Shown here: one piece after another, positions 19,995 through 32,143 of the stretch
Numbering within the stretch: the stretch's first letter is position 1
How the letters are laid out: every line of letters begins with the position of its first letter
Source: an uncultured Gammaproteobacteria bacterium
GTDB lineage: Bacteria > Patescibacteriota > Patescibacteriia > UBA9934
NCBI GenBank assembly: GCA_964414795.1
Contig: CAYPWV010000004.1
Span: 1,591 to 65,590 of the forward strand
DNA: 64,000 nt
Reading direction: 5' to 3'
Notes under the pieces: generated by a model
Seen by the model: only the letters and a program-made list of their open reading frames with translations
What the model was told of the DNA's origin: nothing
Database searches by the model: none
Program-made: the position numbers and the translations under genes

Positions 19995-20194
19995 GTATGG
20001 GAAAGTGGGAAGTAGAGAGTTGTTAGTTTGAAGTGAGTGGATGCTATGTTTTGTCGTGATACAGACAACAGACTACAGACGGCAGATGGGGAAAGTGATC
20101 AGAATCAGATATCTCTTATCTGTCGTCTGTAGTCTGTTATCTAAAAGGAACATCTTTTCACTTCAAACTAACAACTACAAACTTCATAACTTCA
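19995..20194. repeat. MITE-like composite palindromic repeat, family A copy 1
   Basis: Terminal inverted repeats AGTTGTTAGTTTGAAGTGA / TCACTTCAAACTAACAACT; internal IR CAGACTACAGACGGCAGAT / ATCTGTCGTCTGTAGTCTG. Shares GTTTGAAGTGAGTGGATG and ACAGACGGCAGATGG modules with the copies at 42.3, 44.3 and 58.8 kb. Confidence 0.7.
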
Positions 20195-20196
20195 AA

Positions 20197-20231
20197 AGAA
20201 AAGACTCCGTGCATATGCACGGAGTCTTTTC
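20197..20231 (-). terminator. Perfect palindromic hairpin with flanking A/T runs; terminator of tRNA-Thr (bidirectional)
   Basis: AAAAGACTCCGTGCAT|ATGCACGGAGTCTTTT directly 3' of the minus-strand tRNA. Confidence 0.6.
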
Positions 20232-20234
20232 TTC

Positions 20235-20310
20235 TGGAGCCGATGACCGGGCTCGAACCGGTGACCTGCGGTTTACGATACCGCTGCTCTACCAACTGAG
20301 CTACATCGGC
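20235..20310 (-). tRNA. tRNA-Thr (anticodon CGT)
   Basis: RC folds as acceptor GCCGATG/CATCGGC, D-arm GCTC-AGTTGGTA-GAGC, anticodon stem GCGGT/ACCGC, loop ATCGTAA, T-arm ACCGG-TTCGAGC-CCGGT, CCA. Confidence 0.85.
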
Positions 20311-20416: not shown

Positions 20417-21952
20417 ATGGTGGATGGATACGGTCCCGAAATAATCGGAGGTAGAGAACAAGAGAAAACAATTCTTGAACAAAAAATAACGACTTTCTAT
20501 ACCTATGTTGCATCACTTTCTCGTGAGCTCAGTGCATCTGCACGAAGAAAGGCGGTCGTAGAAGCAATCAATGAACGATTTACCGAGAAAGAGTGCAAAC
20601 TTCTCGAAAAAGTTCACGACATTCTTTGGATTGATACGGAGGTATTTTGTAAAAGAACCGGTCAAGAAGTTGCACCCCCAAGCCTCCGTGAGGATATACG
20701 ACGTATTGTAATACTCGAAGAAAAGAATCCCGGAATAGGAAAACGTATCTTTGAAAAATATGGGTATCTTCCTAAAAAAGATGTTTCGTTGGAAGAAATT
20801 CAATGTATGGATACATGCACTGCAGATTTCTTTCATGCCTTTCTCGAGCATTTCGATAATACTCGTGAAGGAGATATACAAACCCTCATAAATATCTGCA
20901 CCGGACTAGAGTCAGCAATACAGCAGAGCAACAAATTATCAGCCGTTCTTGAAATCTTTGATATGTTAGAAAAAAATACTGTTCTCTTGAGAAAGATAAG
21001 AGGTTTACTATCAGAACTTCATACATATGCTATTGATGATCTTCTTGAAGAACTAAGAAACAAAAACGAATATCTCAATAGTGTTGCACAACGCAACAGT
21101 CTTTTTATTACCACCTGTCGTAGATCAGGAATCATAAATCAGGAAAAAACAGTTGCTGAAAAAGAAAAATTGGAAACAGCGCTTGCGCTCATGCTTGGTG
21201 CAAAAGGACTTAACGTGCGAGATTGCTTAGAAGCTTGGCAAAGCACTACTATCGATAACCAGCAAACCATAGAAAAAAATCTCTACGCCATTGATAAGCT
21301 TGAACAAGCAATGCCAGGATCAGCCGCAAAGCTTTATAAACAGTTCGGCATTCGTCACTTCGCACGCTATCCCCAAAAGCTTCTTCTTCGTCAAGCGGAG
21401 TATGCAGAAAATGACACGGTGCCTTATGGAATTGCCCTCTATCCAACCGCTGATCGCAACGGCACATTTTCTTATGACGAAAAAATGTTCACAAATTTGA
21501 GCAATGACTTAAAGGGCATAGGTTGCGAACTTCGTGTAATGGAAGTGAAGGGAAAGCACGATATTGGTCGAAGATTTTTTATGCTTCGGGATGCTTTTCC
21601 AACTCATCTTATTGAGTTTGCAGTCATTGGTGGCCATGGAGATGCAGAGAGCATCACCCTAGGAGGCGATCAAGCGCGAGAAACACTTTCGAAAAAAGAT
21701 TTAACAGGAAGAGGGATGAAAAGAATCGGGGGGTTTTTTGTTCATCAACCATCAATCGTATTGGTGTCTTGCTCTACAGGAAAGGAATCTGGAATAGGTC
21801 AGGAAATTTCGAGTATTTTTGGCGCAGAAGTTACAGCGCCCAAAGAAGACGCAGCTCGTGCAAGTATTCGTGCACAAAAGCGAAACGGAAAAATTATCTT
21901 AAACGCCACCTACAACGTAGAAAAAAACCAATACCTACAGGGAAGATCGTAA
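20417..21952 (+). CDS. Large hypothetical protein with C-terminal caspase-like (CHAT/peptidase C14-type) His-Cys dyad
   Basis: The beta-strand+GHG motif (EFAVIGGHGD) and, about 45 aa later, the beta-strand+Cys motif (IVLVSCSTGKE) match the caspase/CHAT catalytic dyad geometry. The N-terminal ~370 aa is helical. Confidence 0.5.
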   Translation: MVDGYGPEIIGGREQEKTILEQKITTFYTYVASLSRELSASARRKAVVEAINERFTEKECKLLEKVHDILWIDTEVFCKRTGQEVAPPSLREDIRRIVILEEKNPGIGKRIFEKYGYLPKKDVSLEEIQCMDTCTADFFHAFLEHFDNTREGDIQTLINICTGLESAIQQSNKLSAVLEIFDMLEKNTVLLRKIRGLLSELHTYAIDDLLEELRNKNEYLNSVAQRNSLFITTCRRSGIINQEKTVAEKEKLETALALMLGAKGLNVRDCLEAWQSTTIDNQQTIEKNLYAIDKLEQAMPGSAAKLYKQFGIRHFARYPQKLLLRQAEYAENDTVPYGIALYPTADRNGTFSYDEKMFTNLSNDLKGIGCELRVMEVKGKHDIGRRFFMLRDAFPTHLIEFAVIGGHGDAESITLGGDQARETLSKKDLTGRGMKRIGGFFVHQPSIVLVSCSTGKESGIGQEISSIFGAEVTAPKEDAARASIRAQKRNGKIILNATYNVEKNQYLQGRS

Positions 21953-21955
21953 CAA

Positions 21956-22762
21956 TTACCACACAAAAACCCATGCAGGATGTTCTTCGGCGTGGATGCG
22001 CAAAACGTCAGCAAGCGTGGGCTTGTTGATAGCAATGCCGCGCAGATGAATCCAAGCCGTGTCGTCTTTTCCTCCTGCATCAACCACTTTTAACACCCAA
22101 AACGCATCGGTACCCACAAAATCAGCACGAACTTCATCAACCTGCATCGTTGCCGCACCTTGCGCCCATGCAGGAAGATCGGAAACAAGGAAGACCCCCA
22201 AGTCTCCCCCGTTTATCGCCGAACTATCTTCCGAAAAATACCGCGCAATATCCGCAAAGGGCATATCGAGATCAATCTTATCGAGCACATTTTGTAAACG
22301 CATTTCTTGCGAAGGAAGCGCTTTATCTCGCAGTGCATGTGCAGCTCGCATGCGGAAAAAAGGTTCTTCGAGATACTTTTCTTGCTCATACGAAGAAATC
22401 CCTGCATGTGCAAGCGCTGCCGTGTCGCTCTCCGTAAAAAGCGCATCTTGCACCGGCACATCCGCACCATCTAAAAGATCTTTTACACGGGCATCACGCA
22501 CTACAAACGCAAGGGCCTTGGGAAATGCTTCTTGATACGTAGATGCAACCTGAAGCGCCACAAACGCATGTACCGTTTCAACCACACGATGATACGAAAC
22601 CGGAGAACCATGTACCCACGCAGGTGGAAAAACGAGATATGAAACACCTCGCATCATGCCGTCCCCCACATGAAAAAAAACCGCACTCAATTGCAGCAAA
22701 AACCACAATACAAACACCCCACCCCCTACCCCCCACCCCCATTTTTTCTGACGCTCCGTCAT
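21956..22762 (-). CDS. Membrane-anchored parvulin-type peptidyl-prolyl isomerase (PrsA/PpiC-like)
   Basis: N-terminal TM and PpiC motif INGGDLGVFLVSDL. Confidence 0.7.
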   Translation of the reverse strand: MTERQKKWGWGVGGGVFVLWFLLQLSAVFFHVGDGMMRGVSYLVFPPAWVHGSPVSYHRVVETVHAFVALQVASTYQEAFPKALAFVVRDARVKDLLDGADVPVQDALFTESDTAALAHAGISSYEQEKYLEEPFFRMRAAHALRDKALPSQEMRLQNVLDKIDLDMPFADIARYFSEDSSAINGGDLGVFLVSDLPAWAQGAATMQVDEVRADFVGTDAFWVLKVVDAGGKDDTAWIHLRGIAINKPTLADVLRIHAEEHPAWVFVW

Positions 22763-24493: not shown

Positions 24494-24709
24494 TTACTTT
24501 TTCTCTTCCCAATCTTTCAAAGAAATTTTTGCCTGACGTAAAATCTCTGCAAGTAGGGATGCGCCAATGTCATGTTTATGGGAGTTTGGGATATGTAAAA
24601 TGAATGATTCTTTGATCATGAATGGATGCTTACCGCCGTATTCTGGACCCAAAAAACCCAATAATCGCAATCTGCGTACAAGTTCACGCCAGGACACGGG
24701 TTTTGGCAT
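24494..24709 (-). CDS. hicA: HicA-family mRNA interferase toxin
   Basis: 71 aa; WRELVRRLRLLGFLGPEYGGKHPFMIK is typical of HicA (YcfA-like). Confidence 0.7.
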   Translation of the reverse strand: MPKPVSWRELVRRLRLLGFLGPEYGGKHPFMIKESFILHIPNSHKHDIGASLLAEILRQAKISLKDWEEKK

Positions 24710-24959
24710 AGTTTTCTGTGCGAATCTTTTTTGTTTGCATTCCAGGAATGGGAATATTTTTACGGATCTTCAAAAAGAGCCAGGATTCAATAATCTCTGC
24801 AAGTTCGCTTCGGCATTTTTCTAATGTCTTTCCACTCGCCCACACGCCATCAAGACCAGGAACCTCGCCAAAATAGGTTCCATCGCTCAACAGTTTATAT
24901 TTCGCTTTTGCAAGTTGTTCGGAAATATAGCGAGTTATCATACACATATACCATAACAT
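24684..24959 (-). CDS. hicB: HicB-family antitoxin (UPF0150)
   Basis: YFGEVPGLDGVWASGKTLEKCRSELAEIIESWL matches the HicB N-domain; 26-nt overlap with hicA. Confidence 0.65.
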   Translation of the reverse strand: MLWYMCMITRYISEQLAKAKYKLLSDGTYFGEVPGLDGVWASGKTLEKCRSELAEIIESWLFLKIRKNIPIPGMQTKKIRTENYAKTRVLA

Positions 24960-25119: not shown

Positions 25120-25196
25120 TGGTGGACTGGACGAGGATTGAACTCGCAACTCCCGAATGATAAGTCAGGTGTGTTACCAATTAATACCACCAGCCC
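25120..25196 (-). tRNA. tRNA-like gene with atypical D/anticodon arms (identity unassigned; possible pseudo-tRNA)
   Basis: RC gives a good acceptor (GGGCTGG/CCAGTCC with one G-U), a canonical T-arm GCGAG-TTCAATC-CTCGT and CCA. The anticodon stem CCTGA/TCGGG encloses an 8-nt loop CTTATCAT, or a 7-nt loop with a mismatch and anticodon TAT. The D-stem is poor; length is 77 nt. Confidence 0.4.
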
Positions 25197-25390: not shown

Positions 25391-26290
25391 CTAGAAGCGG
25401 TAACCGATGCCGGCGTCGGCGACCCCAGTACCGGCGAACAATCCGCCACCTCCGTCGGTGATCCAGAGGCCACTGCCCCCGGCGCTGCCCGTAACAAAAA
25501 GGTGCCCGTCGTCACCCAGGTTGATCTCGAGGAAGAGGCGGACCTGGCCTCCATCCCCCTTGAGGGTGACAAGGCCGTCATCGAACCCGCCGGCCTCGAT
25601 GTGGAAGTAGCTGATCCGCAGGCCAGCACGACCACGAGAGCTGCCGTAGAAGAGGCCTGCTCCGCCGCTTGCGCCGGTCGAAGCGCTACCGGCGACCATG
25701 AGCGTGGCACCGGCCTCCCAACCCACGCCCGAGGGCTTCAACTGGGAAACCGACAGCCCAACGCTCGAGGTCCAGAGACCTTCGATATGGGTTCCTGCCA
25801 GGTGCGGGTCGTCCATCCAGATTCCTCCGCCGGCGCCGGTGACGGCCAGGCGGACCGGACTTGCGTCGCGGCCATTGGTGCCGTTGGTACCGTTGACACC
25901 GCTGCAGACATAGTAGGTGTTGGTCACCTCGCTCATCTGCAGAGCCTTGTCGCCGTTGAGATCCAAGCCGACTCCGACCTTGACCCCACCTGCAGGGCAA
26001 TGCGCGCCCGGCAGTTCGGGGACAGAGGTCGAGAGGGTGCTCTTGCCGTTCACCCCATCGGTACCATCCACGCCGTCCACGCCGGGCTTGCCGCGGTAAC
26101 CGCGTTTGCCCTCGACGACGGGGACCGTCGTGATGACCGCGCCGCCGCCCTGTTCGCGGATCCGGAGCTCCGCGATCTGAGTGGCCAGGCAGGCCACCCG
26201 CTCCTCGAGCGTCCCGAGGCACATGGCCGGGGGGCTGGTGGGAGCGCTGTCGGCCAGGGCGACTGAGAGAACCAGAGAAGCGATCAGCAT
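25391..26290 (-). CDS. Secreted collagen-like repeat protein with Gly-rich beta-rich C-terminal domain ending in aromatic residue (..GIGYRF)
   Basis: Signal peptide MLIASLVLSVALADSA; G-X-Y repeats GKRGYRGKPGVDGVDGTDGVNGK. The region is visibly GC-rich and all six frames are open, so antisense ORFs are spurious. Confidence 0.5.
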   Translation of the reverse strand: MLIASLVLSVALADSAPTSPPAMCLGTLEERVACLATQIAELRIREQGGGAVITTVPVVEGKRGYRGKPGVDGVDGTDGVNGKSTLSTSVPELPGAHCPAGGVKVGVGLDLNGDKALQMSEVTNTYYVCSGVNGTNGTNGRDASPVRLAVTGAGGGIWMDDPHLAGTHIEGLWTSSVGLSVSQLKPSGVGWEAGATLMVAGSASTGASGGAGLFYGSSRGRAGLRISYFHIEAGGFDDGLVTLKGDGGQVRLFLEINLGDDGHLFVTGSAGGSGLWITDGGGGLFAGTGVADAGIGYRF

Positions 26291-26736
26291 GGAAACACGT
26301 CCTTTCCCGGCTTGTATGCCGGAAATCAGAGGGATTTTCTATCGAGACTAGAACTAAAAAAGAGCGGTTACAGAGGTCTTTTGGGGTCTTGGGGACCCAG
26401 AAAGACTTGTGCCGCAAGAGGGGCTTTCCCAGGGCGAGATATCAGCGTATGCAGTGGAGGAGCATGCACACACGACCTCTCGCCCTGGAAAATCCTCTCA
26501 AAGCGGGACGTTCTAGAGTACCAAAAAAGAGGAGAAAAGTCAAATATATGAAGGGTTATATTATATTGTCCACAAGTTGTTTGACTACTTAAAAATGACG
26601 TGTTTAAATGGAAATAAGCAATCGTGATGCAAATCCTGATTGATGTCATAAATACACTCCCCTGCAAAACAGGTGGGGTGTATTTACTTTCTGCTTCTTT
26701 ATTCTTTTTTCCTTTTTTACTATGCTCTCTATAGCT

Positions 26737-26970
26737 ATGAAAGCTCGTATCCTTTATTACACCGTTCTTCTCCAATCTGAAAAAGAAGGTGGTTTTACGG
26801 TTACCGTTCCCGATCTTCCTGGATGCGTTACGTTTGGATCAACCGTTGAAGAAGCGCAAGAAAAGGCAAAAGATGCTATTACGGGATATTTGGCAAGCAT
26901 TAAAAAGCACAAACAAAAAGTTCCTCATCATACGCACAGTCTTGTTACTTCAGTCGAAGTTCGCGTGTAG
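26737..26970 (+). CDS. HicB-like antitoxin (UPF0150), second copy
   Basis: YTVLLQSEKEGGFTVTVPDLPGCVTFGSTVEEAQEKAKDAITGYL. Confidence 0.55.
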   Translation: MKARILYYTVLLQSEKEGGFTVTVPDLPGCVTFGSTVEEAQEKAKDAITGYLASIKKHKQKVPHHTHSLVTSVEVRV

Positions 26971-27100
26971 TCATTACATTTTCTATCAACCAACAACGGG
27001 AAAACGAGTTGTGGCTCCCCATCACACCAAAGATCTTCCTCGGGGTACGTTGATGGCTATTATTCATGCATCGGGTATTGCGAGAGAGGATTTCTCTTAG
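26873..27100 (+). CDS. HicA-like toxin remnant overlapping the HicB-like ORF out of frame (possibly degenerate)
   Basis: The C-terminus GKRVVAPHHTKDLPRGTLMAIIHASGIAREDF matches the HicA C-terminal half. The N-terminus overlaps hicB by ~100 nt in another frame, suggesting a frameshifted or decaying toxin. Confidence 0.35.
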   Translation: MLLRDIWQALKSTNKKFLIIRTVLLLQSKFACSHYIFYQPTTGKRVVAPHHTKDLPRGTLMAIIHASGIAREDFS

Positions 27101-27164
27101 AGCAGACATTAGAGCAGACCCTCTGGACAGGGATATTTGTTTCTTTTACAATCCCCAAAACCGC

Positions 27165-27260
27165 AAAAAATCCTCTTTCTTGGCCAGAGTGAGCGGATAC
27201 AACGTCTCCTCCTCGCTGTATCTCGTTACCCTCTGGCTGCGAAAGAGGATTTTTTGTTAA
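27165..27260. terminator. Long bidirectional hairpin terminator (AAAAAATCCTCTTTC..GCCAGAG../..CTCTGGC..GAAAGAGGATTTTTT)
   Basis: Seen directly downstream of the M23 peptidase gene. A second GC hairpin GCCCGAGAGG..CCCTCGGGC follows. Confidence 0.5.
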
Positions 27261-27335
27261 GCAAAGCGCCCGAGAGGAGATTCCCCCTCGGGCACACGAC
27301 CTCTTGGTGCCCAACGAATCGGGCGCGCGTAGAGG

Positions 27336-29135
27336 CTAGTCGGTAACGGTGAACGTAAGTCCACAGCCGTCGGACGTGGGATCATCGGAAGCGGAGACGG
27401 TTTGCGAAACGCCGTGCCACGTTGCGGTAGCCGTTCCCTGCAACGTTCCCGCAGGATACGGGGCCAGACACGACCAGCTTGTGGTGGAGCCAACCACGAA
27501 CTCGACCGAGAACCGCAAGCTGTCGCCTTCGGCCATGCTGCGCGTATAGGTTACGCGCGTGGCGCTGGTGACGGAGGCGAGAAAGGGCACCCAGCCGGCG
27601 GGAGATCCGCCGTTTGGCGTGTACTCACCCGAAAGCGTGATGCGACTCGCCTCCACTCCACTCGGGGTTTCCCAGGTGAGCGTGAGCTCATCGCTCGTTG
27701 CTTCTTCGGCCGTGTCACTCGCCTCGATCTCTTCTTCCTCTTCGGTCGCAGTGTCATCGGTTTCTTCGATTGCGGTATCTTCCCCTTCTTCCGCAGCAGA
27801 GTCGCCCTCGTCTTCTTCTTCCTCGGACAAATCGCCCGCGGCGCTGAAGGAACCTTCATCCTCTTCCGGCCCGCCGCAGGTGGTGAGATCAGCTTCGGTG
27901 AGGCAATACGTATCCGTGCTGCAGCTCCCCTTTACGCTCACCACGCTTGCGAACTCGCTCGGATCAACTTCGAGAACCGAACGGCTCCAAAAGCCGGCGA
28001 GCAAATACGTGCCCCAGGTCTCGATGGGCATAGCGATGCCGTTGCTCATGAGATAGACGTCGCTCGCGTCCGACGGCGACACCAGGGTGCCATCGCGGTA
28101 CGTGAGCGCCGAGGTATCTTTGATGGGATAGCGGTCGATGATGTTGTCGAGGTCTGAATTCTGCGGAAGATCGCTGTAGCTTGCTGCATAAATCCCCCAT
28201 GACTGCAGCACGCCTTCCCATCCGGTCGTGCTCACCTTCTGGCGCTGATCGCTTGCGCTCTCGTTGCCAAACAGCATCCACACGCCGGTTCCGCCCTCGT
28301 CGTCGTACACGGCGGCCACCTCGGAGTCGTCGGTGATGTCGTCGCCCACGGTCAGGCACGCAAGCTCAGCGTCCGAGATAAGCGCAATATCGGCGAAACT
28401 ATAGTTCCGCGACACGAAGCTGCTTTCGGTGATGAACGTGCGTGCTGATCCCCCTTCCATGAGATACACCGCGCTGTCGCTGGGCGTTTTCACGAGGCTG
28501 CCGTCGGGATGCCAGAGCGCAACCGGCAGCGCCGAGGTGTAGGAGTGGCCGGCGGTGAGATCGCAGTTGAGGTCATCGACCGCGATGCTCTCCACGCTGG
28601 TGCCGAGCGTGCCATCGGCCGCTGAGAACTCCAGTCCCTCGATCGAGGTTCCGTAGATCCCGTCTTCCGCCGCATCGCCGTCGTGCCTGCCGATGTGCAC
28701 GTGATCACCGGTTGAGGCGCCCGTGGTTCCTTCGAACCCGATGAGCTGACCGGCCGCCACTTCGCTCTCGCTGTCGATGAAGATAGACGAGAGGTGCGCC
28801 ATGATGATGTAGGTGCCGTCACCCATGTCGATGTTCACGTGGTAGCCGAAGTTGGTGTCGGCGTCCGTATCGTGCACATACGCCACGCCGTCCACCGGTG
28901 CATAGAGCGGATCATCGGCGTCGTTGGGCGTATCGAAGTCGGCGTCGTAGCGGGTAGAAGTTCCGCTGTGAGAGTAGCTCCCGCCCGGCCCTTGGCTGCA
29001 GCGATAGCTGTCGCCCGAGGCAAACGGCAAGTTGATGGTGATGGCGTCGTAGCCACCGCCGCTGTTGCCGTTTGTGGCGTTCTGAGAGCAGCCGTTGAGC
29101 AGCATGACGAACAGCATAGAGATGAAAACGAACAT
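27336..29135 (-). CDS. Peptidase M23 (LytM/lysostaphin-like) lipoprotein with acidic linker and C-terminal beta domain
   Basis: Lipobox LLNGC (start taken at MFVFISM, 29135). M23 motifs HVNID (HxxxD) and DHVHIG (HxH). Long E/D-rich linker EEEEDEGDSAAEEGEDTAIEE. GC-rich. Confidence 0.7.
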   Translation of the reverse strand: MFVFISMLFVMLLNGCSQNATNGNSGGGYDAITINLPFASGDSYRCSQGPGGSYSHSGTSTRYDADFDTPNDADDPLYAPVDGVAYVHDTDADTNFGYHVNIDMGDGTYIIMAHLSSIFIDSESEVAAGQLIGFEGTTGASTGDHVHIGRHDGDAAEDGIYGTSIEGLEFSAADGTLGTSVESIAVDDLNCDLTAGHSYTSALPVALWHPDGSLVKTPSDSAVYLMEGGSARTFITESSFVSRNYSFADIALISDAELACLTVGDDITDDSEVAAVYDDEGGTGVWMLFGNESASDQRQKVSTTGWEGVLQSWGIYAASYSDLPQNSDLDNIIDRYPIKDTSALTYRDGTLVSPSDASDVYLMSNGIAMPIETWGTYLLAGFWSRSVLEVDPSEFASVVSVKGSCSTDTYCLTEADLTTCGGPEEDEGSFSAAGDLSEEEEDEGDSAAEEGEDTAIEETDDTATEEEEEIEASDTAEEATSDELTLTWETPSGVEASRITLSGEYTPNGGSPAGWVPFLASVTSATRVTYTRSMAEGDSLRFSVEFVVGSTTSWSCLAPYPAGTLQGTATATWHGVSQTVSASDDPTSDGCGLTFTVTD

Positions 29136-29194
29136 GGTGTGAAGTCCCCTGGAGAGTAAGTGATGATTCACTTGTATTCCCCCTTGAAAGGGAG

Positions 29195-29275
29195 TCCTTT
29201 GGAAATTCAGGGGGAAATGCAAGTGAAAGTTTGAAGTATGAAGTTGGTAGTTTGAAGTGAAAGGATGTTATTTTT
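29195..29275. repeat. Partial family-A repeat (GTTTGAAGT x3 arm + TTCCCCCT/AGGGGGAA hairpin)
   Basis: AGTGAAAGTTTGAAGTATGAAGTTGGTAGTTTGAAGTGAAAGGATG shares the GAAGT-rich arm with the full copies. Confidence 0.5.
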
Positions 29276-29621
29276 TAATAGTTTTTATAAAAGCGTTGAG
29301 CATATTCATCTCTTCATCTAACAATTGTTTTGCTTTTCCCATATCCCGTACATCAATCATTTTTATGCGTAATGCACACAGACATTGCGTCTGTAATTCC
29401 GCAAGAGAGCCTCTTGCCGTAGCGAGAAATGAAAGAAAATCTTTCTTTGTAGAACGATAACTGCCTTCCGCAATGTTGCTCGCTACGCTAATAGCAGATC
29501 TTCTCATCTGAGAAACTAATCCGAATCTTTCACTGTCAGGAAATATATTTGTAACTCTGTATATTTCCTCCACAATCTCCATGGCTTTTTGCCAAATAAG
29601 TAACTTGGTATGACTAAACAT
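29268..29621 (-). CDS. Four-helix-bundle protein (TIGR02436-like)
   Basis: LLIWQKAMEIVEEIYRVTNIFPDSERFGLVSQMRRSAISVASNIAEGSYRSTKKDFLSFLATARGSLAELQTQ matches the family signature. Start taken at MFSHTKLL. Confidence 0.65.
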   Translation of the reverse strand: MFSHTKLLIWQKAMEIVEEIYRVTNIFPDSERFGLVSQMRRSAISVASNIAEGSYRSTKKDFLSFLATARGSLAELQTQCLCALRIKMIDVRDMGKAKQLLDEEMNMLNAFIKTIKK

Positions 29622-30100
29622 AGAAAACCTTCCATTCACTTCAAACTTATCACTTCCCCACTTCACACTCTCACATATTGCCCGGGGCAAGGACTCCCCT
29701 CCTTACCCCTTTAGGACTTAGATATCAACGACTGCTGGCCCAGCTGACGTTTTGTGTACGCAGTGATTGTCCACGAACACAGTGCGATCAGGTGCGCGAG
29801 CACGGGGTGATACAGACGTAACCGAACGTTCCTTGGAAAGATTCGTCTGTGCGAATTCCTCGGTCGTTCTGTATCTATCTCACCACAAAAAAAGAGGTGT
29901 TCAGGACGTGTGCACTAAAAAAAGCATCTTTTTCCAACATTTCCCAAAGAAAATAAAACATCTTGATACACTGTCAGAAAACACTGCACACTTTCTTCTC
30001 CAACGCGCGATAAAAAGCTCCTCGCTGTTCTGCACCTTCTTACACAAAAGAAAAAGTTGTCAGCCGTGCACAAACTGTGGATAAGTGGTGAAAAATAGCC

Positions 30101-30135
30101 TCGTCATTCCGGACTTGATCCGGAATCCATCGCAT
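30101..30135. repeat. REP-like palindromic repeat, family B (single copy)
   Basis: TCGTCATTCCGGACTTGATCCGGAATCCATCGCAT. The same consensus occurs at 45.5, 50.3 and 62.7 kb. Confidence 0.65.
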
Positions 30136-30151
30136 TTCAAAAAATATCGAA

Positions 30152-30186
30152 CTAAAAAAGCTCGAAACATCGTTCGAGCTTTTTTT
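30152..30186. terminator. Perfect hairpin AGCTCGAAC-ATCG-TTCGAGCT with A-run/T-run (bidirectional terminator)
   Basis: Seen directly. Confidence 0.55.
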
Positions 30187-30196
30187 CGTATCGTTT

Positions 30197-30499
30197 CTAT
30201 TCGAGCGTTACGTGTGCATGATTTGCCAACTGAAAGATGTACGATTCTAGACGTTGGTATTTCGCGCGAAGAGAAACAAATTCGAGATCGAGTGTTTTAT
30301 GTAAAACGACAAACCCATCTATGTGGGTAATAAGATCACTCTTCAGTGTCTCTACTTCTTGCTTGGTAGCAAAACGTTCGAGATCTTTCTTGGTTGCAAA
30401 ATCTCGCAATTCCTCTTTTAGTTCCTTTTTGGTCACCATGTTATCGCGCATGAAGTGCACGATGTCGAGAATGTCCTGAAGCATGTGTTCTTGGCTCAT
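30197..30499 (-). CDS. Hypothetical small helical protein (100 aa)
   Basis: ORF only; charged coiled-coil-like (KKELKEELRDFATKKDLERFATKQEVETLKSDL). Confidence 0.35.
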   Translation of the reverse strand: MSQEHMLQDILDIVHFMRDNMVTKKELKEELRDFATKKDLERFATKQEVETLKSDLITHIDGFVVLHKTLDLEFVSLRAKYQRLESYIFQLANHAHVTLE

Positions 30500-30726
30500 A
30501 AAAAAACGTTATTGTTTATAAATACTGAAGCCAAGATCTTGAAAATATAAAAAGCTTCGAGGGATGTTCTTACTATAGAAAAGAGCACGACGTGCGTCAA
30601 CTTTCTTTTCTTCACTACATAACATTGACAAGCAAAAATTTTCTTGCAAAGCTCCATATGATGCTTATTTTGGCATTAACGACTCCCCACAAGGGAGCCG
30701 TGTATTTTTTTTAACAATATCTATGT

Positions 30727-31125
30727 ATGCATATAAAATCTTTTGACAATTGGAATCTTCATAAAAAGAATCTTGATGTGCGAGAAAATCTCTTTCTTTT
30801 TCATGAGGGTGAAATTTGGTGGAGCGCGGTAGGTGTCAATATCGGTGATGAGTCTTGTGGAAAAGGTGAAACATTTCGAAGGCCAGTACTTATTTTGAAA
30901 AAGTTGTCACAAAAAAGCTTTATTGGCATTCCTCTTTCAACAAAGAGAAAAGCGGGATCTTGGTTTACAGAAATACGTATCCATAACGAAATACAAACTG
31001 TACTTCTCTATCAAATTCGCATGTTCAGCACACGAAGATTTCAACGAAGACTTACAACATTAGATTATGCTGATTTTCTTCACATAAAAAATAAGCTTGA
31101 GAACTTGCTCAAGCTTACTTCTTGA
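30727..31125 (+). CDS. MazF/PemK-like mRNA interferase toxin; no adjacent antitoxin seen
   Basis: HEGEIWWSAVGVNIGDESCGKGETFRRPVLILKK...IGIPLSTKRK resembles the MazF/EndoA core (G.E..G.RPVLV ... T). Confidence 0.45.
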   Translation: MHIKSFDNWNLHKKNLDVRENLFLFHEGEIWWSAVGVNIGDESCGKGETFRRPVLILKKLSQKSFIGIPLSTKRKAGSWFTEIRIHNEIQTVLLYQIRMFSTRRFQRRLTTLDYADFLHIKNKLENLLKLTS

Positions 31126-31375
31126 AATAATCACCAGAGCCAAGGCTCTGGATCGGTGGGAAAACCCAAAAGTAGATAAAATATATAGAATGCCATTTTG
31201 CATGTCAAATTTCCCCACTTTTCCCCTCCTTCTTGTAAAAACCTCAAATTTTTGCTATATTTACTTTTGTCAGGTGCTTTTTTAAGCACGGTTTAAACAG
31301 TTTTTCTCAGCTAGAATGCTCGGCAAACCGGGGCAAAAATCGTGTTCTCTCACCACAGTTCCCGCGAGGTGCTCC

Positions 31376-32143
31376 ATGCGAAACGCACTCTTCCTCATAG
31401 TCCTCATGGGCTGCGGGGACTGCCACGGATGTGGCGGTAACTCCGGCGAAACCGGCGACTCGGGCGGCAACAAGGACACCAACCCGACGGTGACGGTCGG
31501 CACTGCCACCCTCACCTACACCGTTTCGGTGCTGGGTGAGGAGGCGGGAGACGCTGCAGTGAACGTGGAGTGCGAGGCCCAGGATTTCGTCTCGACTCGC
31601 TCCGGCGAGACGACCACGGTCGAGGCGCCGAGCTCCTGTCTGGTCACGGCGGGTGACGAGGAGTACACCGACGAGTTCGGGTACCCGATCTACGCTATCG
31701 AGGTCGACGAAGACACGGTTGAGTACTGGGCCGCTCCACCGGTCAGCCTCACCGTGGAGCCCGACCAGACGGTCACCGGCGATTTCTCAGCCTTCAAACT
31801 CTTCGTCCCGGGCAACTATTCGTGCGAGTACGACAAGTACGCGCTCGACGAGGGGGCCGATGAGATGAAGGGCGAGTGGATGCGGAATGAGTCCGTTGAC
31901 ACGCAATTCATCTCCGTAGACCAGAATGGAATCGTGGAGGCGGAAGACAACGCCAACATGAGCGTCATCGGTCGAGACGACGACCACATGAAGATTCAGG
32001 GTGCCAACCTGACCCTGGTCTCTGACAGCGAAAATCCTTCCTACATTTCTCAGTCGAATATCGACATCGAAACGTTCAGCTTGACGGTGGTCAACACCGA
32101 AAGCAAATACGTCGCGGATGTCCGGTGCGGCCTTGACGAGTAG
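31376..32143 (+). CDS. Predicted lipoprotein, acidic Thr/Asp/Glu-rich, in GC-rich islet
   Basis: Start taken at MRNALFLIVLMGCGDC (lipobox LMGC). GC-rich composition unlike its neighbours. Confidence 0.45.
   Translation: MRNALFLIVLMGCGDCHGCGGNSGETGDSGGNKDTNPTVTVGTATLTYTVSVLGEEAGDAAVNVECEAQDFVSTRSGETTTVEAPSSCLVTAGDEEYTDEFGYPIYAIEVDEDTVEYWAAPPVSLTVEPDQTVTGDFSAFKLFVPGNYSCEYDKYALDEGADEMKGEWMRNESVDTQFISVDQNGIVEAEDNANMSVIGRDDDHMKIQGANLTLVSDSENPSYISQSNIDIETFSLTVVNTESKYVADVRCGLDE

Follow-up and report, generated by a model that had tools for sequence, protein, structure and literature searches.

A CPR-centred family of predicted clan CD cysteine endopeptidases with distant kinship to DUF4347 and C80

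Cysteine peptidases of clan CD share, as a hallmark conserved in all families, a glycine adjoining the catalytic histidine, and an S1 pocket formed by L1/α1, L4 and L5, and differ in what follows strand β5, where caspases have helices, whereas in family C80 a 'β-flap' between β5 and β6 takes the place of helices α4/α5 (PMC4357240). In the MARTX CPD, the P1 Leu of autoprocessing lies 30 residues N-terminal to β1 (PMC4357240). The newly solved Tce1 of Pseudomonas aeruginosa (PA0256; PDB 9qpe chain G), an Hcp3-loaded T6SS effector and an example of DUF4347 (PF14252), is classed as a putative cysteine protease only, with His186 and Cys240 as its proposed catalytic residues, and is reported to superpose on the TcdB CPD (PMC13323088). 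Here we compare with these systems a protein encoded in a patescibacterial stretch of DNA (the window, 64,000 nucleotides, analysed as a whole), which is probably a cytoplasmic clan CD cysteine endopeptidase belonging to an unannotated CPR-wide family that is distant kin of DUF4347/C80. CPR/Patescibacteria have small genomes with many proteins of unknown function and, to our knowledge, almost no enzymology exists for these organisms; a literature search returned no papers on a caspase-type cysteine protease in Patescibacteria.

The gene had been noticed in the sequence as an open reading frame with two motifs 45 residues apart, EFAVIGGHGD (with His407) and VLVSCSTGKE (with Cys452), flanked by a tRNA-Thr, a repeat and a parvulin gene, all of which we recovered (Table 1), although the Rotamase_3 match of the parvulin (PpiC-like) neighbour barely exceeds the Pfam threshold. 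The start of the protein (MVDG..) is similar to the MxEG.. starts of homologues, which supports the annotated ATG as the start codon. The gene is monocistronic at this locus, lying between a divergent tRNA-Thr on its upstream side and the PpiC-like gene, which converges on it from downstream; in the wider surroundings, DivIC and a Mur ligase lie past the PpiC-like gene, and FtsE and FtsX lie upstream. A HicA/HicB pair is located ~2.5 kb from the open reading frame. No second copy of the protease domain was found elsewhere in the window. The GC3 of the gene (0.318) is the window minimum (window mean, 0.47) and is lower in the N-terminal half (0.277) than in the C-domain (0.357); in our reading, this low GC reflects quick evolution under weak constraint in the N-terminal half, and does not prove a recent transfer. 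We considered but rejected the idea that the gene sits on a tRNA-linked genomic island: despite the low GC3, no integrase was noticed beside the tRNA-Thr in the list of open reading frames (nine neighbouring ones were profile-scanned), no direct repeats were seen flanking the gene there, and the flanks are housekeeping.

Table 1. Positions of the gene, its neighbours, its domains and its conserved residues within the window
Feature	Position	Strand	Remarks
CDS, 511 aa + stop	20417..21952	+	ATG start, TAA stop
tRNA-Thr(CGT)	20235..20310	-	Upstream of the 511-aa ORF, opposite strand
PpiC-type PPIase gene	21956..22762	-	Convergent, downstream; Rotamase_3 24.4 bits, Pfam cut-off 22.5
Nested palindrome ('family-A repeat')	20009-20185		Arm sequence present 9 times in the window
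Residues 1-249, variable all-helical N-terminal region	20417..21163	+	Low AF2 confidence, pLDDT about 40-80
Residues 250-336, conserved helical module	21164..21424	+	Conservation in 141 representatives; pLDDT above 90
Residues 337-508, alpha/beta protease core (predicted), about 172 aa	21425..21940	+	AF2 and Foldseek
Leu306 codon	21332..21334	+	Sole invariant residue of the helical module, 31 residues before β1
Asp346 codon	21452..21454	+	Invariant acidic, loop after β1; candidate S1-pocket or His-orienting residue
Glu376 codon	21542..21544	+	Invariant acidic, C-terminal end of β2; role inferred
His407 codon CAT	21635-21637	+	GGHG motif directly after β3; predicted general base
Cys452 codon TGC	21770-21772	+	SCSTG motif directly after β4; predicted nucleophile

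The full-length AF2 model was confident for residues 250–505 only, and a model of residues 250–511 alone had a mean pLDDT of 94.2 and a pTM of 0.91. The earlier note had assigned a helical nature to the first 370 residues and a caspase fold to the C-terminal ~150; the former is indeed helical, though its helical part ends near residue 330, and the latter is predicted to have that fold, with a larger core than proposed and with the helical module as part of the conserved unit (Table 1). In the models, this module packs against the core, the two forming one unit. The core comprises 10 strands and 4 helices: the main strands β1 (337–343), β2 (371–377), β3 (399–405), β4 (441–450) and β5 (471–475), two short strands in the β3–β4 loop, a hairpin (482–499) and a last strand (505–508), with no helices after β5. 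His407–Gly408 directly follow β3, and Cys452 directly follows β4. Outside close relatives, the N-terminal half is unconserved, and a full-length family profile searched against the PDB matched this half only to helical-repeat and designed proteins with high bias; given those bias scores, we took the matches as compositional and rejected them as evidence for HEAT/ARM repeats. In agreement with the first description, profile searches of the window protein and of family members found no TPR, and no SAVED domain, and no transmembrane-like or signal-like hydrophobic segment was seen among 151 family members.

We assessed how strictly the putative catalytic residues are kept in a set of 182 family sequences, most of which represent clusters at 50% identity. 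At covered positions, His407 was present in 179 of 179 and Cys452 in 178 of 178, an invariance indicating that the motifs are not a matter of chance, and Asp346 (174/174), Glu376 (176/176) and Leu306 (174/174) were equally strict. The residues invariant in 141–142 representatives were L306, G338, D346, E376, H407 and C452, all of which except G338 hold across the 182 sequences, with G406, G408, R317, Y318, R373, S451, T454 and G455 almost invariant in the same representatives (Gly406 at ~100%). Conserved residues of the helical module are W274, N288, E296, P300-G301, L306, G311-I312, F315 and R317-Y318-P319. Six basic positions are also conserved (R317, R373, K380, R385, K398 (in the family) and R436).

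To the profile libraries this protein is invisible: the window protein had no match in Pfam (at E up to 10), NCBIfam, PADLOC or PDB sequences. In structure-based searches of the PDB with Foldseek, by contrast, Tce1 (9qpe_G) was the top match of either model (E 1.1e-3 and 2.7e-4, probability 1.00, target-normalised TM-score 0.55–0.56), followed by caspase-4, -11, -3, -8 and -1, CED-3, a Bacteroides C11 peptidase, legumain, the GPI transamidase subunit GPI8 and SAVED-CHAT, so that the confident matches were mostly clan CD peptidases, at TM-scores that are low (0.3–0.55) and with E<1e-3 reached by one match only. The predicted structure has the three-layer α/β/α core of clan CD, with the His at the end of β3 and the Cys at the end of β4, and a glycine adjoins the His in nearly all sequences (Gly408, 177/179). 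Together, these model-based comparisons support a caspase–haemoglobinase (clan CD) fold for the C-terminal part, with the dyad in canonical positions, as the His/Cys signature had first suggested. The remaining, weaker Foldseek matches include Rossmann-like enzymes at low probabilities (UDP-glucose dehydrogenase, enoyl reductases and type II dehydroquinase), and they raise the alternative of a Rossmann- or flavodoxin-like ligand-binding or transferase domain without protease activity, in which GGHG would be a glycine-rich ligand loop, or of a catalytically dead scaffold. The remotest sequence match of the family (P0177) weakly matches a SLOG family (E 0.0019), and clan CD also holds transamidases and ligases such as GPI8 and legumain. 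However, the non-clan CD matches are of low probability (0.2–0.6) or cover only a generic three-layer sandwich, the strict invariance of His and Cys at clan CD positions, with the Gly that adjoins the His, would be unexpected for a nucleotide loop or a dead scaffold, and two independent methods both lead to Tce1, leaving a non-protease very unlikely.

The second of these methods was sequence-based. A C-domain profile searched against 177,635 PDB sequences gave two matches only, one of which, and the sole relevant one, was the Tce1 chain (E 0.31); the alignment sets iigGHGt against LIATHGT and LvSCStG against LYGCDfAG, pairing His407 and Cys452 with Tce1 His186 and Cys240 (hmmsearch, and the same by hhalign; chain offset +109). 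The earlier note had named a His and a Cys falling off the catalytic positions as grounds against its reading; given this pairing and the placement of both residues in the model, that objection does not arise. Further links came from the members themselves, with weak, sub-threshold DUF4347 matches in 13 of 48 (best E 1.1e-4, Pfam scan). One member (P0045) scored 25.0 bits, above the gathering cut-off of 24.6, over profile positions 14–149 of 164, corresponding to about residues 361–503 of the window protein, and another (P0037) scored 20.2 bits, below that cut-off. From the Foldseek result, the profile alignment and the score of P0045, we therefore place the family as a distant branch of the DUF4347/C80-like lineage of clan CD. 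Formally, the window protein itself belongs to no curated family; it had no match to PF14252 even at E≤10, hence no formal DUF4347 membership. A homologue search with Tce1 returned 5 sequences only, near-identical or low-quality.

This kinship brings with it another possible mode of action, in which the conserved unit would be a C80-like autoprocessing module that cuts the polypeptide it belongs to, perhaps after Leu306 or else upstream of the helical module, and so frees the variable N-terminal region to serve as 'cargo' or effector; activation could come from a small anionic ligand that binds to a patch of conserved basic residues. Its nearest relatives being C80/DUF4347-type domains, the protein also combines a variable N-terminus with a conserved C-terminal protease, as in the GTD-CPD arrangement of TcdB, and its post-β5 hairpin (AF2) resembles the C80 β-flap. 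The N-terminal half is AT-rich and fast-evolving, the six conserved basic positions could offer a ligand site, and Leu306 lies 31 residues ahead of β1, close to the 30 residues of the MARTX CPD P1 Leu (PMC4357240), a correspondence to be taken as a lead only. In some members, the helix-PG-helix-FG motif of the module is duplicated upstream. In the window protein, an HMM of the module finds a weak second copy at residues 85–116 (i-E 0.0018), a degenerate version of its helix-PG-helix-(F/Y)G motif (LEEKNPGIGKRIFEKYG within residues 85–116, against LEQAMPGSAAKLYKQFG at 295–311), and about six other family members carry clearer second copies, indicating that the module is occasionally duplicated; this weak internal duplicate also explains why jackhmmer, started from residues 1–249, strayed into the C-domain. 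Against self-cleavage, Leu306 is predicted to lie inside a well-packed helix of a module that co-folds with the core (pLDDT above 90) and not in an extended linker, and ~45 residues upstream of it are also conserved, unlike at CPD cleavage sites. InsP6 is not known as a bacterial metabolite, no activator is known, and the searches turned up neither a secretion signal nor a neighbouring secretion-system or immunity gene. We thus regard a C80-like autoprocessing module as unlikely. Its most far-reaching version, a CPR-wide, ligand-gated, self-cleaving C80-type module whose diversifying N-terminal domain is freed as a lineage-specific effector, with release that could occur in the symbiont or after transfer into a host bacterium, seems less likely again.

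To place the protein in its wider family, an exhaustive phmmer search of 1.84 billion cluster representatives was used. It recovered 1375 proteins at E≤1e-3, of which 943 reach E≤1e-10 and 236 reach E≤1e-30; the total is a count of clusters at 50% identity, and all of them align only over residues about 250–505. None of the family proteins carried a precomputed Pfam domain or an informative name, and searching for homologues with the domain profile brought in no annotated relative. A genome scan yielded 28 loci, in which all but two records were labelled Patescibacteria/CPR (one was titled only 'uncultured bacterium'), spanning Paceibacteria, Levybacteria, Saccharibacteria, Liptonbacteria, Magasanikbacteria, Moranbacteria, Kaiserbacteria, Doudnabacteria, WS2, Peribacteria and Parcubacteria; a member from Giovannonibacteria, beyond these 28 loci, came from a separate search. 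A single 'Bdellovibrionales' contig has an IleRS neighbour in common with two Moranbacteria loci, and is therefore probably a CPR contig in the wrong genome bin. In what was sampled, then, the family is CPR-centred and occurs across most CPR lineages, and its occurrence in nearly every CPR class suggests that it is old and has been inherited mainly vertically.

Genomic context bears on the CHAT-type label of the earlier note and its mention of conflict-system effectors (type III CRISPR-, CBASS- or Avs-like), which can be framed as the reading that the protein is an anti-phage or conflict effector whose sensor partner is lost or lies elsewhere. Such a role would be in keeping with the fold held in common with SAVED-CHAT (8tl0, Foldseek E 1.3e-2, probability 0.98), with the adjoining tRNA and the atypically low GC3 (0.318 versus a mean of 0.47), and with the HicA/HicB pair about 2.5 kb off. 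However, neither the CHAT profile (PF12770) nor the C14 profile (PF00656) matched the window protein (E≤10) or any of 48 members (E≤1), the nearest family being DUF4347/C80-like, and the PADLOC search was empty. All-against-all clustering of neighbours found no family in more than 3 of 30 loci and hence no conserved neighbour, immediate neighbours differing across loci in strand, size and distance; those that are shared include S20, IleRS, UvrA, RNase J, YebC, ClpB and PBP (read by eye from motifs). Each of the 30 loci holds one copy of the family, housekeeping genes lie nearby, and no partner gene emerged among these loci, in line with the lack of an adjacent one remarked on at the outset. 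A toxin–immunity pair was likewise considered and rejected, as no small neighbour recurred among the loci examined. Viral relatives were absent from a scan of IMG/VR contigs, and BFVD gave one uncharacterised Myoviridae protein (E 2e-4) and otherwise uninformative matches. With no conserved neighbour, housekeeping surroundings and no IMG/VR relative, the context favours an old CPR gene that works alone over a defence or conflict operon; the absence of a noticed integrase by the tRNA (list of open reading frames, nine neighbouring ones profile-scanned) and the spread over nearly all CPR classes point the same way. Neither the CHAT/C14 assignment nor the conflict-system framing is supported; a CHAT-type conflict effector is largely refuted and, in our view, most improbable.

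For the preferred reading, a stand-alone cytoplasmic clan CD endopeptidase, the analysis directly shows the open reading frame, the invariant dyad, the size and sampled CPR-centred distribution of the family and the lack of a partner gene in the 30 loci. The fold and the dyad at strand ends are predicted by modelling, whereas the protease activity and, given the lack of transmembrane or signal-like segments, the cytoplasmic location are inferred. Cys452, at the end of β4, would act as the nucleophile, and His407, at the end of β3 between Gly406 and Gly408, as the general base. Asp346, in the loop after β1, and Glu376, at the end of β2, are predicted on the same strand-end side as the dyad and may shape S1 or position the His, Asp346 being, by analogy with clan CD, a candidate for either role. 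The helical module (250–336) would be an integral part of the enzyme, and the fast-evolving helical N-terminus (1–249) may select substrates or regulate activity.

This analysis assigns a predicted fold, dyad and nearest relative to more than 1,300 sequence clusters that are absent from curated libraries, and ties Tce1 to a much larger set of homologues. Should the protease prove active, the family would be a tractable candidate for a role in regulated proteolysis or in the host interaction of CPR bacteria. If instead the self-cleaving reading were true, the module would be a bacterial-host counterpart of the toxin CPDs triggered by InsP6, and a candidate for a part in the CPR episymbiotic lifestyle.

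Among described systems, CHAT (PF12770) and C14 (PF00656) proteins resemble the window protein in their clan-level fold and in the order, placement and spacing (about 45–50 residues) of His and Cys, but here no profile match exists and TM-scores are only about 0.3; unlike in caspases, post-β5 helices are absent from the model and, unlike CHAT proteins, the protein comes without TPR, SAVED or other sensor partners. Closer is MEROPS family C80 (PF11713; cysteine protease domains of MARTX toxins and of Clostridioides difficile TcdA/TcdB, and Shigella OspB), likewise a clan CD family with His and Cys at the β3 and β4 ends, the protease C-terminal to a variable 'cargo' region, and an invariant Leu about 30 residues upstream of β1; the β-hairpin that the AF2 model shows after β5, with no helices, may correspond to the C80 β-flap (PMC4357240). 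In contrast to C80, the window protein is not part of a large secreted toxin, and InsP6 dependence and autoprocessing are only circumstantially hinted at, by the position of Leu306 and the basic residues; PF11713 gave no match for the window protein and one among 48 members (E 0.037), and no C80 structure was among the top 50 Foldseek matches.

Tce1 is the nearest relative, and its C-terminal domain likewise has 10 strands and 4 helices (Tce1 per PMC13323088; here AF2), with an additional N-terminal domain ahead of the protease core in both proteins. Sequence identity is only about 14–17%, however, and the CPR family differs in its conserved 85-residue helical module and long variable helical N-terminus, in its housekeeping surroundings, with no T6SS gene among the neighbours examined, and in being large and CPR-centred, whereas PA0256 is almost confined to P. 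aeruginosa (PMC8262886). Because both fold and chemistry are well known, the system is not new in kind; what is new is the family, inside a known clan and with a helical module of its own.

Within the family of CPR-centred relatives of the 511-aa protein, the gene was broken into two ORFs at two loci (L029, 5572-6664; L030, 693-2191), one in a Paceibacterota MAG and the other in a Saccharibacteria MAG, and these splits could reflect a frameshift, a pseudogene or faulty assembly. A few members, including P0042 (725 aa) and P0045 (667 aa), extended 135-245 aa beyond the protease domain; the P0042 extension showed weak, below-threshold likeness to an AbiEii-type nucleotidyltransferase (E = 0.0048).

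Features of the window by position.
Feature	Position (nt)	Strand	Remarks
Nested imperfect palindrome	20009-20185		Between ftsE and tRNA-Thr
Copies related to this palindrome	near 29243, 29636, 42412, 42543, 44539, 54600, 58824, 59049
Perfect-loop hairpin	20190-20239		25-nt arms; directly 3' of minus-strand tRNA-Thr
HicA/HicB-like pair	24494-24959		Neighbours tRNA-like gene
tRNA-like gene	25120-25196	-	ARAGORN call
High-GC gene block	25391-32143		GC 0.60-0.67
Single ORF, 3063 aa	32333-41524	-

Downstream of the family gene, the high-GC block lay far above the rest of the window in composition, with GC3 of 0.75-0.79 where the window averaged 0.47, and has the look of inserted foreign DNA. Among its genes, one encodes a DUF7151 protein and another an M23 peptidase. 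At the edge of this block, adjoining the HicA/HicB-like pair, was the tRNA-like gene, for which ARAGORN gave an unassignable four-base anticodon ('tatc') and the Rfam tRNA model a score of only 38.8 bits.

Two inverted-repeat structures were found upstream of the family gene. The arms of the hairpin were 92% complementary and separated by 0 nt, with the distal arm running over the final few bases of tRNA-Thr as called; this hairpin is probably the terminator of tRNA-Thr. The second structure, the nested palindrome (outer arms of 35 nt with an 80% match; inner arms of 25 nt with a 92% match), is what the earlier note had called a 'family-A repeat' beside tRNA-Thr, and its repetitive nature was borne out: the outer-arm core, GTTGTTAGTTTGAAGTGA, occurred 9 times within the window, versus 0.09 expected by chance. 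Copies of this core were mostly near the ends of the long ORFs listed for the window, frequently as inverted pairs. Together, the palindrome and its related copies look like a dispersed intergenic element of the REP/MITE-like kind.
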